Source of the DNA: Dictyostelium discoideum
Taxonomy: Eukaryota
Direction: 5' to 3'
NCBI GenBank assembly: GCA_000004695.1
Contig: CM000150.2
Location: 2,336,001 to 2,400,000, forward strand
DNA length: 64,000 nucleotides
Program-made: the position numbers and the translations under genes
Shown here: positions 36,801 to 42,800 of the stretch, piece by piece
Numbering within the stretch: the stretch's first letter is position 1
How the letters are laid out: every line of letters starts with the position of its first letter
Notes under the pieces: model-generated
What the model was told of the DNA's origin: nothing
Databases searched by the model: none
Seen by the model: the letters and a program-made list of their open reading frames with translations, nothing else

Positions 36801-39800
36801 TTTTGAATATTTTCAGAAATTAGATTAATATCAATTATTGATGTATCTAAATTTATAATTGAAATTAATTCAGATGAATCTGTTGCTATTGCTGTTGTTG
36901 TAGTTGTTGCTGTTGTTGTTGATAATGTTGATGTTGTTGATGTTGTTGTTGTTGATGATGATAATGTTGATGTTGTTGTTGTTGTTGGTGGTGGTATTGT
37001 TGTTGATATTGATGATGATGATGTTGATGTTGATGTTGTTGTTGGTATTATTGATATTGTTGATGGAATTGGTGTAGTTGTTAAAGTTGTAAATAAATCG
37101 GTAGTTTCAACAATATTACCATTTATTAATAATAAATCTTCATCATCTTCTTTATTTAAAAATTTAATTTCATTTAATTCCTCACTACCATGTTCACTAT
37201 CAGAATCGTCATTTCCAAAATCAGTTATAAGACCTTGTGGATTAATTAAATCGAATTGAATTGTTTGTTCTCTTAAATTTTCAATATCATTTGAATTGAT
37301 TGAATAAACACGATCAATTGAAATTAAATGATCAATTAATTCACCCCAAGTTCTATCCAATTTCAATAGAGTAGCATTTCCAATGATGAATAAACCATAT
37401 TTAGCACGAGTGATACTAACATTGATACGTCTACGATCAGATAAGAAACCAATACTTTCATTTCTAACACAAGACATGATCATAATATCTTTTTCACTAC
37501 CTTGGAAAGAATCGATGGTTTTAATTTCAATATTCAATGAAAGATTCAATTGTTTATAGGCATCTTCAATCTCTTTTCTTTGTAATTTATAAGGAGTTAC
37601 AATACCAAATGAATATTGTTTAGTTTCTGGATGATCTTGAGTTAGCTTCTTTATTAAAGTGAATACCATTGTAATCTCTAATTGATTTTTAATTGAAGTT
37701 TTACCACGTTCCTCTCTTGAATCTGTAACATCAAAGAATCTAATGGCACCATAGTCTTGATTTTCATGGAAACGTAAACTATAGGCATCACTTGAAACAA
37801 CGTTATCACCATCCTTTAATATATCATGATAGAATTGTGATGATGGGAATTTTGAAATCAAAGGATGCATACGATATTGAACATTCAACATTGAAACTGG
37901 TAATACCTTGGAAAGACGTTCAAACAATGAAATACCTAAACCACAATGAATACTTTCCTTTGAGAAAATTGTTGGTGGTAATTGAACTGGATCACCAACC
38001 AATATTAACTTTTTCATTGATTTTGCACCCAACGACAATGGAATGATACAAGAGGTTTCACAGGATTGTGTTGCTTCATCCACTATTACCACATTTGGTT
38101 TGAATGAACTTTGTACTAAATTACTACCACTTGCTGATAATGTTGAGAAACAAATACTTGAGTGTTCTAAAATCATTTTCTTTTCATCCAATCTTCTATT
38201 GAAAACACAAATATCATGAACTATTGGATCTTGAATATTATCTTTCAAACCAATACGTACCATAGTTGGTATATACTTTTCACCACGATCATTTAATAAA
38301 CCTTTGATGATTACTCTTTTAGCAACTTCATCAACTGCTGCATGAGATGGACCACATACCAATATTTTGAAGTCTGGATTAATCGCTAAAATAATTGAAA
38401 TCAATGATGTGATAGTATGAGTTTTACCAGTGCCAGGTGGACCTTGAATTAAAGTTATAGATGAATGTACCAATGATTCATTGATTGCTGCCAATTGTGA
38501 TTCATTTAAAGTTTGATTATAATGATCTTTTAAGAGTGTAGGAATTTCCCAACGATCTTTACCCGATTGATTGTAAGCTTCAATGGTTGGTTTTAAAATC
38601 AAAGGAAACAATGGACTTTTAGCTACAGTTTCCAATGCATCCAATTCTCTATGAAAAGTTACACAACTTGATACCCTTAAGAATGATAATGGTGTATTGG
38701 TATTGATTACACCATGACAGTTGTTGTTATTATTTTTCACCAAAGAGAGACTATACAATTTTTCAATGAGTGCTCTAGTATGTTGAGAGATAATGAATTG
38801 ACAAACCACTCTTTGAGAACTACCCTTCATATAACCATGATTTACTGTACGTGCTAATGCAAAGATGGCTCTACCTTCTTCATTGAAACTTTTAAAGAGT
38901 ACTAAATCATTGATTTTAATTTCCTCATCTTTAGTTTTGTGTCTAAGATAAAAAGTAACATTTAAACATTCCTCTGATATCTCCTCCAATGAATGAATGG
39001 TCATTGATTGATTCATATTAATTCTATCTAAATTTGAAATGGTTCCATCATCTGCTAATTTAACACCATCAATATCATTGAAATTGGTTTCAAGTGTTTT
39101 TCTAAATTCTTCAACTAAAATTGGTTTAAATGAATTCTTATATTCCATATGATTTTCATAACAATCCAAAAGTTTTACTATATTATTTGATTGTAATACT
39201 GTAATTCTTTCTGGTGCTGATTTTAAAATCTCTTCAATAATATGTTTTGAATCCATTGAAATTACATCAATTTGATCTCTAATTAATGGTGAATCAAATT
39301 TAATTTTTGAATTTATTGGTGTTACTGTTGCTGTTGGTATTGGTGTTGTTGTTTTTGTTGTTGTTGTTTCTTTTGTTGTTAAACTATTGTTGTTGTTAAG
39401 GTTACCATAACTACCTGGTACATAAATAAATGGTGCAATTGTACTTGAATTAGAGGTATTAAGTGTATTATTTGATGAATTATTATTATTATTATTATTA
39501 TTATTATTATTATTATTATTATTATTATTATTATTATTATTATTTAAGGAACCATAACTACCTGGGACATATGTAAAAGGAGCAGGAGAATTTAATTTGG
39601 AAGTGGTGTTAGTGGTTGTTGAACTTGTTATTGGACTTGTTATATTGAGTTTGTCGTTTTTTTGATTGGCTGGTACATAAGTGAAGGATGTTGGTGAAAG
39701 TGAACTTTTGGTTGAAGTTGAGGTTGAGGTGGTTGTTGATTTTGTGGTTATACTTTCATTATCACCATTTTTGTTATTTTTTTTACTACTATTATTATTA

Positions 39801-42800
39801 TTTTTGCTATTATCATTATGGTTACTTGAACCACCACCTCCACCACCTGGGACATAAGTAAAGGAAGATACTGAAGGTACATTAAAATATTTCTTATCGA
39901 AATTTTCATTATTCCATTCGAGATCTTCAATGTTTTCATTATCTTCTTCATTATTATTATTATTGTCATCATGATATTCTTCACCATTATCATTATTATT
40001 ATTATAACTTTTATTATAATATCCATTATATTCGTTGTTATAATTATAGCTTTCACCATTATCATTATAATTGTACCCATCATTTTCGTAGTTATAACAA
40101 TCACCATTATAATTTTCATTGTTGTTATTATTATTATAATCACCATTGTAACCATCACCATTATAATTTTCATTATTATTATTATTATTATTATTATTAT
40201 TATTATTATTATTATTATTATTATTATTATTATTATTATTATTATTATTATTATTACTATTATTATTATCAATATAATCACTGTCATTATAATCACCATT
40301 ATAACCATCTTTATTGTAGACATCATCGTTATTATAATCATCATTATTATTATAATCACCACCATAATTATAATTATAACTACCATCATTATTATTGTTG
40401 TTATCATTATCGGTGTAATTATCATTATAATTTTCATTATTATAATCACCACCATCATTATTATTATAACTATCATCATTATTATTGTTATCATTATCGG
40501 TGTAATTATCATTATAATTTTCATTATTATAACTACCATCATTATAACCATCATCTTTGTAATTATCATTGTAATTATCATTATTATTATTATTATTATT
40601 ATTATTATTATTATTATTATTATTATTATTATTATTATTATTATTATTATTATTATAATTATTATTGTCATCATTATTATCGTTTTCATCGTTATTATCA
40701 TCATCATCATCATTATCAAGGTGATAAAAACTATTACTATTATAGCCACCACCTGGAACATAGGTGAAAGAGGTTACAGTTGGTACTTTGAATTTAGCTT
40801 TATCGATATCATCATTGTTGTTAATGCTCTTTTTGTTATTTTTATTATTATTATTATTGTTGTTGTTATTATTATTATTCTTATTATTATTACTATTATT
40901 ACTATTATTAATAATTTCTCTATTATTTTCTTTTTTATTAATAATGTTTTCTCTATTTAAACTATTTCTACTTAAAATTGAATAACTTGAATAATCATTT
41001 TGATATTTTTTAATCAATAAATAAATTTCATTAAAACTTGAACGAGAAATGAGTGAAACATCTTCATGAGTTTTTGGTAAAGTTAAAGTTGGAATTGAAA
41101 TATTTGTTTTACCACTTCTACGATAGTTAAACTCTTTAGTATATTCAGTGAATTTATGGTTAGAGAAATCTTGGAATAATAATTTTCTAGATCTTTGATG
41201 TTGAATTAGTTGTTCCAAGATTGAATAATATTGATCGGTATCATTTTCACTCTCTAAAATTTCTTTAAGAAGTAATCTTTGATAACAATGACTAGTTTCA
41301 ATTAAAATCTTAAAAGATAATATTTTTTGGTAAATATCCTCACATAAATCATCATTGGTTTTAATCATTGATTTAATTGAAACTAAATATTTGTTTGCTA
41401 ATTTAATCTTCTTTTCTAATCTATCACGACTTGATTCAATGGTTTGTCTTACTAAATGTAAATTTCTATAATGTTGTGGATAACTCTTTAACATTTCATC
41501 AATTGTTAATATAATTTCATCAACTGAATTTGATTTTAAAAATATAGTTTTTAAAATAAAATTAACATGTGGTGCAACTTTAACACCATTAGTTGGTAAA
41601 ATTTGAATTGATGATGTTGTTGTTGGTGATGATGACGAAATTTGCATTGGTGGAAATGATGAAAAAATACTATTATTATTATTTTTATTATTATTATTTG
41701 ATAATGATGATGACAATGTTGATGAAATTGATGGTGAATTTGTACCACCTTGACTATAACAATTAACTGCATAAGCAATATCTTCAAAATAAGAAGCTAT
41801 AACAGTTTTAATATCAACAGTAAGGAATTTAAAAATTGGTATATTAATACGCTCACCAAAATCAGTTAAAGAAATACTCTTTGGAAGGAAACGAGTAACA
41901 TCACCATTGATCATATAAGAGGTACCAATATAAGGTTGATGAATATTATTTAAACGATCGAAAAGTTGTTGCCATTTACGTTTTAATGTCGAACTTTTAT
42001 CTTTGGTACTATAAGATTTTAAAGCGCTTCTTTGAGTGAAATTACTAAAATCCAATAGAATTCTAGCGGAATTACAAAGGTTTGTAATCTCCAAGAATCC
42101 AATTGGATTAACATCTTCAACGATAATCCTTTGTAAATCTCTATGAGTTTTTGCTCTATTTGTTTGAACCTTTTGAGAGAAAGAATCTTGAGTACCTCCT
42201 ATTAAAATTGAGGAAACCAATTGTAAACGATTTTCATGTTCTGGGAATCTTGTAATTAAAAGATTTATAGCTGCAACAATTGTACTAATATCAGTTGTAT
42301 CTCTAAATGCTTCTTTTAAAATTCCACATGAATTACTTGAATGAAGTGAATTAATTTGATTAATATGTTGTTTTTTTAATTCACCTGGTAAAATATTATT
42401 TCTTAATGACATTTTATTTTCAAAATATTGATCATTATTTTGATTATTATCACCTTCACTACCATTATAATTATTATTATTATTATTATTATCATCATAA
42501 TCTTCAATATCTTCATTATTATTATTCATACATTCATCAAATACTAATCTTGGTGATAATTGACTATAAAGTTCACGAATTTCATTAAAAATATGATTAA
42601 TGAAAATTGATAAAGATTCATCATAAATTTTAAAGTTTCTGATTACAATCTTTTTATCATTGAGACCAGAGAAAATGAAATCTTTAATTAGATTGACATT
42701 GGTATCAACCGTTGCAGACATTTCCAAATATCTACTAATATCCAAGATTTGTTTTGAATGAACATTATTTAATCTTCTACTGACATCACTTTCATCGACT

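Follow-up and report, generated by a model that had tools for sequence, protein, structure and literature searches.

Five F-x-Y-V-P peptides in the disordered linker of a giant Dictyostelium discoideum helicase-nucleotidyltransferase, a candidate array of docking motifs

Introduction

The canonical PAM2 peptide, for which the consensus LNxxAxEFxP has been described, is a ligand of the MLLE domain of the poly(A)-binding protein PABP (PMC7356810), and its residues Ala7 and Phe10 have been reported as invariant (PMC2854688). A PABP-binding PAM2 motif is found in the disordered half of HELZ, which is a UPF1-like helicase (PMC6769256). In Ustilago maydis, the proteins Upa1, Vps8 and Taf7 contain PAM2L peptides, in which the FxY core is essential and precedes a Pro; these peptides are located within disordered regions, with two or more of them in a protein (10.1101/2024.03.22.586338, PMC11572963). 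PAM2L ligands bind the MLLE3 domain of Rrm4, and a seven-helix MLLE3 has been described in fungi (10.1101/2024.03.22.586338). Here we describe a peptide, F-x-Y-V-P, that occurs five times in the disordered linker of a 4540-residue helicase-nucleotidyltransferase of Dictyostelium discoideum, which is encoded within a 64,000-nucleotide stretch of chromosome 1 (contig CM000150.2; hereafter, the window).

The five peptides resemble PAM2L in their FxY core (F-T-Y, or F-I-Y in a single copy), in having Pro nearby, in their disordered context and multiple copies, and in a setting of RNA biology. They also resemble the PAM2 motif of HELZ, in that a peptide of ~12 residues within the disordered part of an RNA-processing protein ends in aromatic-x-Pro-(Gly).

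Results

The peptide F-x-Y-V-P occurs five times in one linker

A scan of the 4540-residue protein with the pattern F[TI]YVP returned five copies, all of which are read in one minus-strand frame and lie in the low-complexity linker, from ~45 residues past the last N-terminal repeat (copy 1) to ~40 residues ahead of the pre-helicase domain (copy 5) (Table 1). A sequence-only reading of this DNA had quoted five peptides within a low-complexity linker upstream of the helicase, and we found every one of them in the same reading frame, at exactly the positions it gave and in the location it described. That reading had rendered the repeat as the octapeptide (S/A)PFTYVPG(G/S), of which the recurrence stands and the form needs small corrections: the part invariant in all five copies is F-x-Y-V-P, the preceding residue is Ser in copies 1-3 and Pro in copies 4 and 5, and Gly follows in four of the five, copy 3 alone having Ala after the Pro. 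The second core position is Thr in four copies and Ile in one, and the two residues upstream of the Phe read T-S, S-S, T-S, A-P and A-P from copy 1 to copy 5. With few fixed positions, and with Phe, Tyr, Val and Pro invariant throughout, the peptide has the format of a short linear motif.

Outside the core, a context of 20 residues, D-K-x-x-F-x-V-P-[TS]-V-[TS]-S-F-T-Y-V-P-G-G-G, is common to copies 1 and 2, and copies 4 and 5 share the context A-P-F-x-Y-V-P-G-S-Y-G-x-L-N, with copy 3 remaining ungrouped. The broader pattern [FYW]x[FYW]xP has no match in the 4540-residue protein beyond the five copies, and no further F.Y[VIL]P was found within an open reading frame (ORF) in any frame of the window. 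Based on amino-acid composition, the expected number of copies is 0.0018 for the protein as a whole and 4e-5 for the linker, compared with the 5 observed, which bears out the earlier statement that the recurrence is not compositional noise.

The conservation among copies lies in the peptide

Arrays reported by Tandem Repeats Finder were confined to AAT/poly-Asn stretches, with the motifs outside them, and a repeat finder connected the five sites through one 26-nt family only (65-85% identity). The codons vary among copies (Phe, TTC or TTT; Thr, ACC, ACT or ACA; Val, GTT, GTC or GTA; Ser, TCT or TCC; Pro, CCT or CCA), and the flanks past ~8-12 residues from the motif are unrelated between copies. 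Because the similarity is confined to 26 nt and the codons differ synonymously, the copies did not arise as a recent DNA repeat, which agrees with the sequence-only reading that they are not one recent tandem DNA duplication. The differing codons furthermore indicate that gene conversion is not homogenising the copies. An element acting at the level of DNA or RNA was rejected, since what is conserved is the amino-acid sequence, whereas the codons vary.

From Phe to Pro, the minimum number of changes among the five cores is 5 synonymous and 1 replacement, compared with a neutral expectation of 76% replacement (binomial P=0.004), in a test that uses a very small number of sites and is biased because the motif was chosen for looking conserved. 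Over the extended contexts, the raw proportions of differences per site between copies 1 and 2 and between copies 4 and 5 are 0.52-0.53 for synonymous sites (pS) and 0.14-0.22 for replacement sites (pN). High synonymous divergence, low replacement divergence and decayed flanks suggest that the duplications are old and that the peptide string was preserved. Taken together, these comparisons of the copies with one another support the conclusion that it is the peptide that has been maintained, through the drift of its codons and flanks. Such a pattern is what a functional linear motif would be expected to leave. A different origin of the motif, as a decayed fragment of an N-terminal repeat, received no support, as phmmer searches seeded with the repeat gave only non-significant low-complexity matches in the linker.

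The motif copies are predicted to be disordered

We obtained two AlphaFold2 (AF2) models, which together cover all five copies. The first comprises the last N-terminal repeat and copy 1 and used an alignment of 12 repeat copies of the window. In this model the repeat folds as a helical bundle with a small hairpin at a predicted local distance difference test score (pLDDT) of ~90, and copy 1 scores 36-41. The second comprises copies 2-5 with the pre-helicase domain and the helicase and used a 26-sequence alignment. Here the enzyme module is modelled with high confidence, and residues 1-242 of the model, which hold copies 2-5, score 25-31 and have no secondary structure. The range of 25-41 across all five copies fits the disordered region of the sequence-only reading, and the models thus predict that the motif copies sit in a disordered, accessible segment. 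A fold-back of the motif in cis onto the last repeat or onto the pre-helicase domain and helicase received no support from AF2, which is a weak negative, as the alignment of the linker is effectively a single sequence.

The host protein and its neighbourhood

The window is AT-rich (22.5% GC) and belongs to strain AX4, and the product of its ORF at 29532-30200 is 100% identical to RabT1 (Q55EG6). The 4540-residue protein consists, in order, of N-terminal helical repeats, the disordered linker, a pre-helicase domain, a helicase, a Ser/Thr-rich spacer and a nucleotidyltransferase (NTase). For the N-terminal repeat domain, which is present in nine copies, no match was found in Pfam, and its structural neighbours are generic helical bundles only. 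Both core domains of the helicase are present (AAA_11, E=1.6e-45; AAA_12, E=4.1e-56), and its closest named relatives are the plant MAGATAMA 3 helicases. The NTase matches PF22600 (E=1.3e-18), and its homologues additionally have PAP_assoc/TUTase matches.

Two further low-complexity features of the protein were observed. Between N-terminal repeats 1 and 2 there is a Gln/Pro tract of ~190 residues with QQQP-type repeats (aa ~230-420, window ~47900-48480, minus strand), which constitutes a second low-complexity insertion, with a composition unlike that of the linker. Within the Asn/Asp/Tyr-rich block of the linker, YNNENYNDNYTDNDNNNN occurs twice, ~30 residues apart (aa ~2880-2930, window ~40390-40530, minus strand), a doubling that is a young tandem duplication, in contrast to the old, diverged motif copies.

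Directly upstream of the gene, and in the same orientation, are two ORFs that encode the same repeat domain, with one copy at 49670-50935 (minus strand) and two copies at 51060-53186 (minus strand). They represent either tandem paralogues in their own right or upstream exons that were not annotated. The C-terminus of the 708-aa ORF (NNQNEIIVNPVQSNRIEPKI) nearly matches NNQNEIIVNPIQSNRKEPKI, which is located between repeats 6 and 7 of the big protein, and this near repetition suggests a segmental duplication. Four tRNA genes, two for tRNA-Glu(UUC) and two for tRNA-Gln(UUG), with each pair oppositely oriented, are located in the 5 kb that separate RabT1 from the 3' end of the big gene. Farther along, at 54879-56213 (plus strand), is a 444-aa ORF for which an identical product is recorded from 14 contigs, with several AX4 gene names (DDB_G0269094, DDB_G0293692 and others). 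It is part of a cluster of 17 near-identical members and is thus the ORF of a multi-copy mobile element. A second copy of this ORF, 2.3 kb downstream at 57239-57511 (plus strand), retains only ~the first 66 residues.

Table 1. Location of the motif copies, the domains of the host protein and other mapped features, in window coordinates
Feature	Protein position (aa)	Window position (nt)	Strand	Basis or remark
Uninterrupted ORF, 4540 aa/codons		35552..49174	-	ORF list and domain searches
Helical repeat domain, nine copies of ~200-230 aa each	8-2765	40880..49153	-	AF2 and sequence searches
Low-complexity disordered linker, ~530 aa, 40% Asn	2761-3290	39305..40894	-	Holds 5/5 motif copies
Motif copy 1, DKAKFKVPTVTSFTYVPGGGYNS	F at 2803	40754-40768	-	Pattern scan
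Copy 1, extended context DKAKFKVPTVTSFTYVPGGG	2791-2810	40745..40804	-	AF2 pLDDT 36-41
Block rich in Asn, Asp and Tyr between copies 1 and 2, 282 aa (141 N, 46 D, 37 Y)		39899..40744	-	Mostly AAT-type tandem arrays
Motif copy 2, DKKYFNVPSVSSFTYVPGGGGGG	F at 3105	39848-39862	-	Pattern scan
Copy 2, extended context DKKYFNVPSVSSFTYVPGGG	3093-3112	39839..39898	-	AF2 pLDDT 25-31
Motif copy 3, LSPTSFTYVPANQKN	F at 3164	39671-39685	-	Pattern scan
Copy 3, context LSPTSFTYVPA	3159-3169	39668..39700	-	Pattern scan
Motif copy 4, NSPAPFTYVPGSYGSLNN	F at 3200	39563-39577	-	Pattern scan
Copy 4, context APFTYVPGSYGSLN	3198-3211	39542..39583	-	Pattern scan
Motif copy 5, TIAPFIYVPGSYGNLNN	F at 3249	39416-39430	-	Pattern scan
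Copy 5, context APFIYVPGSYGNLN	3247-3260	39395..39436	-	Pattern scan
Pre-helicase domain, helices and beta-barrel	3291-3555	38510..39304	-	Conserved in D. purpureum and Acytostelium homologues
SF1 Upf1-like/MAA3-like helicase core	3556-3934	37373..38509	-	Pfam AAA_11 and AAA_12
Nucleotidyltransferase palm domain, non-canonical poly(A)/poly(U) polymerase type		36152..36529	-	Pfam PF22600 MTPAP-like_central
Four tRNA genes		30931-31003; 32297-32369; 34125-34197; 35018-35090	+; -; -; +	Gap between RabT1 and the big gene

Discussion

Based on a precise string in several copies, accessible disorder, synonymous drift and decayed flanks, we give an even chance to the proposal that the five F-x-Y-V-P peptides are multivalent short linear docking motifs for a putative partner protein. 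Docking function, multivalency (which the five copies suggest) and partner class are what we infer as most likely. By this proposal, a disordered insertion of ~530 residues would have come to separate the N-terminal repeat array from the helicase-nucleotidyltransferase module, and old internal duplications within it would have generated the sub-families of copies 1-2 and 4-5, with copy 3 alone. The peptides would then have been retained at the amino-acid level while codons and flanks drifted. The core, which is extended, aromatic/hydrophobic and beta-prone, together with a Pro-Gly turn, could fit a groove of a globular domain of the partner or add a strand to it, and several partner molecules could be tethered in this way to an RNA helicase and 3'-tailing enzyme. 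The best candidate for the class of partner, which by analogy we hold at a rather low probability, is a peptide-binding domain of the MLLE/PABC type, because the FxY...P core resembles both PAM2L and PAM2.

Several observations weigh against a docking array, among them the distribution of the motif in relatives of the protein. In an exhaustive representative search with residues 3090-3560 as query, the sole real relative, besides two low-complexity matches, was D. purpureum DICPUDRAFT_150267 (F0ZFW3, 2271 aa). This protein is 40% identical over 702 residues, and 37% over the NTase, and resembles the D. discoideum protein in having N-terminal repeats followed by pre-helicase domain, helicase and NTase, but differs in that ~20 residues join its last repeat to the pre-helicase domain, with no disordered linker. 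Neither the linker nor the FxYVP motif was found, whether in the protein or in any frame of its locus, and because the 2271-aa product accounts for all but <400 nt of the 7202 nt spanned by the gene, little room remains for introns and no large region is hidden. We found no gene order in common at the D. purpureum locus beyond the gene itself, and the gene is thus a putative orthologue. Acytostelium subglobosum encodes two tandem helicase and TUTase/PAP genes of 1378 and 1251 aa (locus positions 3426-7771 and 10001-13905; including SAMD00019534_099420), and both are without N-terminal repeats; linker and motif are likewise missing from the proteins and from every frame of the locus. The module that these dictyostelid homologues share, which comprises the pre-helicase domain, the SF1 helicase and the MTPAP-like NTase, is 35-40% identical.

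Closer to AX4, orthologous DNA was reached via the neighbouring gene RabT1. In strain ACTFIT the whole linker is covered and is 100% identical to AX4 over 3240 residues, which carries no information on conservation of the motif. Strain ACTFIW, at ~93% nucleotide identity, has an orthologue of 4589 aa, and the retrieved DNA ends ~100 codons before copy 5. In strain ACTFIR, a retroelement that encodes reverse transcriptase lies in the gap between RabT1 and the big gene, and the retrieved locus ends 208 nt into the gene. Rab matches in D. firmibasis, D. citrinum and a second D. discoideum strain have different gene neighbours, among which there is no helicase gene. Two orthologous gene calls, with lengths of 4589 and 4532 aa, are known by length alone. 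The motif is absent from the paralogue locus of D. cf. discoideum (GCA_054859205.1). This paralogous locus (6819-11861) adjoins an actin gene cluster and encodes an NTase-like domain (tblastn ~8009-8749, in a 922-aa gene) upstream of a separate 593-aa helicase gene, such that the domain order is reversed or split relative to the window protein.

No further protein that carries the motif turned up in wider searches. With the helicase region as query, the matches were limited to a paralogue at 51% identity, a single Acytostelium protein and MAA3 helicases of plants, and no homologue at E<=10 was obtained with a composite query that combined two repeats with the motif contexts and the pre-helicase domain. 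The 4540-residue protein and its close orthologues were absent from the protein and contig databases searched, even though RabT1, the EGF-like neighbour and four assemblies of the D. discoideum group were present. A metagenome scan found nothing, a motif profile had 0 matches in the PDB, a literature search for the peptide string returned nothing relevant, and no partner protein was identified. The sequence-only reading had proposed a comparison with orthologues, and named as evidence against itself a linker retained without the motif, or copies of one recent tandem duplication with identical flanks. The nearest retrievable homologues, in D. purpureum and Acytostelium, lack linker and motif together, which is neither of these and leaves no linker in which the motif could be compared across species. 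Because both lack the linker and the motif, we conclude from the sequences that the linker, with its array of motifs, is an insertion restricted to the D. discoideum lineage, and that the motif is probably young and not deeply conserved. Furthermore, the Acytostelium tandem genes are without the N-terminal repeat array, which suggests that repeat array and linker were added stepwise within Dictyostelia.

The described MLLE ligands also differ from the peptide in ways that weaken the case for docking of that kind. Where PAM2L reads D/E-D/E-F-x-Y-P, the residues upstream of the Phe here are Ser, Thr, Pro or Ala, with no acidic flank, and an invariant Val separates Tyr from Pro, which places the Pro one residue farther away. 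With Tyr aligned to PAM2 position 10, Pro12 is present in all five copies, and copies 1-3 have [LP]-[ST]-[VP] at positions 3-5; positions 3 and 4 read P-T, P-S, L-S, N-S and S-T from copy 1 to copy 5, which is a loose similarity to Leu-Asn. However, position 7 in this alignment is Ser (copies 1-3) or Pro (copies 4 and 5) and not Ala, and position 10 is Tyr in all copies and not Phe (or the Trp of PAM2w). Position 8, which is solvent-exposed and variable in PAM2, is an invariant Phe here, and position 9 is Thr or Ile, compared with a preferred Glu (PMC2854688, PMC7356810). Aligning the Phe, and not the Tyr, to position 10 gives no agreement at position 3, 4 or 7. Canonical PAM2 was rejected, as its strict pattern (ELM) matches no copy, with Ala7 and Phe10 failing. 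A relaxed pattern, [LFP][NST][PIVTAFL]x[AGS]xx[FY]xP, which was picked post hoc, has 3 matches (copies 1-3), compared with 0.2 in shuffled sequences. To our knowledge, calcineurin LxVP/PxIxIT, SHP box, ALG-2-binding, GYF, EH, SIAH degron, FGDF and other motifs do not fit the peptide either.

The main rival to a docking array, which we consider unlikely and yet place above the other alternatives, is that internal duplication and slippage enlarged the linker and that the peptides are its least-decayed leftovers, functionless relics under no selection for binding. The linker is lineage-specific and absent in D. purpureum and Acytostelium, the genome is known for neutral expansion of Asn/Gln tracts, and the copies form the sub-families 1-2 and 4-5 that duplication would leave. 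Furthermore, no second protein with the motif was found in homology searches (E<=10) or with the PDB profile, and a motif that was noticed for looking conserved biases the selection test. However, neutral decay would erode the core like the flanks, and Phe, Tyr, Val and Pro remain invariant in all five copies at a pS of ~0.5 between copies, with flanks that are unrecognisable; gene conversion, which could otherwise preserve a string, would make the codons uniform, whereas they differ. Distinctly less probable than relics is a role in self-association, in which aromatic, beta-prone cores and the Tyr-rich block between copies 1 and 2 would act as stickers that drive homotypic or condensate interactions, as in ribonucleoprotein (RNP) granules. 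Cores such as VPTVTSFTYVP, the FUS-like S-Y-G of PGSYGSL, the G-S-Y-G after copies 4 and 5, the 37 Tyr in 282 residues of the block, the predicted disorder of the linker and the RNA-related enzyme are all consistent with this idea. Stickers normally tolerate sequence variation, however, and the retention of an exact five-residue string that includes Val and Pro is hard to reconcile with that tolerance, particularly as the many other Tyr of the linker are in freely varying contexts.

The two remaining explanations, which we consider equally and highly improbable, each account for part of the peptide. One is the version favoured by the sequence-only reading, in which the Tyr is phosphorylated and read by an SH2 or PTB domain, or the peptide is a ligand of WW domains. 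An invariant Tyr in an accessible disordered segment, within Tyr-Val-Pro-Gly, would suit phosphorylation, and Dictyostelium, as is generally known, has proteins with SH2 domains (STATs and others) as well as tyrosine-kinase-like kinases. The WW and PTB parts of that proposal fail, as the strings PPxY and NPxY are absent at every copy, and we rejected both ligand classes; a simple phosphotyrosine code does not account for the equally invariant Phe two positions before the Tyr or for the Val-Pro after it, and a full-text search found no report of the peptide. The other is that the peptides are Atg8-interacting motifs (AIMs, also termed LIRs), in which F-x-x-V after Ser/Thr would bind Atg8 by beta-augmentation and target the protein or RNPs to autophagy. 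The aromatic-x-x-aliphatic core (F-T-Y-V) with Ser/Thr ahead, the beta-prone residues and the disordered segment resemble a LIR, and all five copies fit [ST]x0-2-[WFY]-x-x-[ILV]. However, this pattern is unspecific, with 87 [WFY]xx[ILV] matches in the same protein and 89 when upstream Ser, Thr, Asp or Glu is included, and LIR rules leave the invariant Tyr, Pro and Gly unexplained, these not being LIR features, just as the acidic residues upstream of a LIR are absent here.

Returning to the docking array, its most far-reaching form, to which we assign a small probability, would make F-x-Y-V-P-G an undescribed class of docking motif and the linker a five-site array specific to the D. discoideum group. 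This array would recruit several copies of a partner from RNA metabolism, for example PABP via MLLE as a third flavour beside PAM2 and PAM2L, and would couple recognition of poly(A)-RNPs to unwinding and tailing. Whether or not the peptides function, no general concept would change, as short linear motifs in disordered regions are a kind already well known, and if they are non-functional they would be a mere curiosity of low-complexity evolution in Dictyostelium. If they are functional, the five short peptides would offer an entry point into a giant helicase-nucleotidyltransferase, as sequences to mutate or to use as bait. They would also present a clean case of a linear motif that was born and multiplied in a young, fast-expanding low-complexity insertion, with selection visible as islands amid Asn repeats, and, if the partner is an MLLE domain, they would extend the PAM2/PAM2L code to organisms other than animals, plants and fungi.

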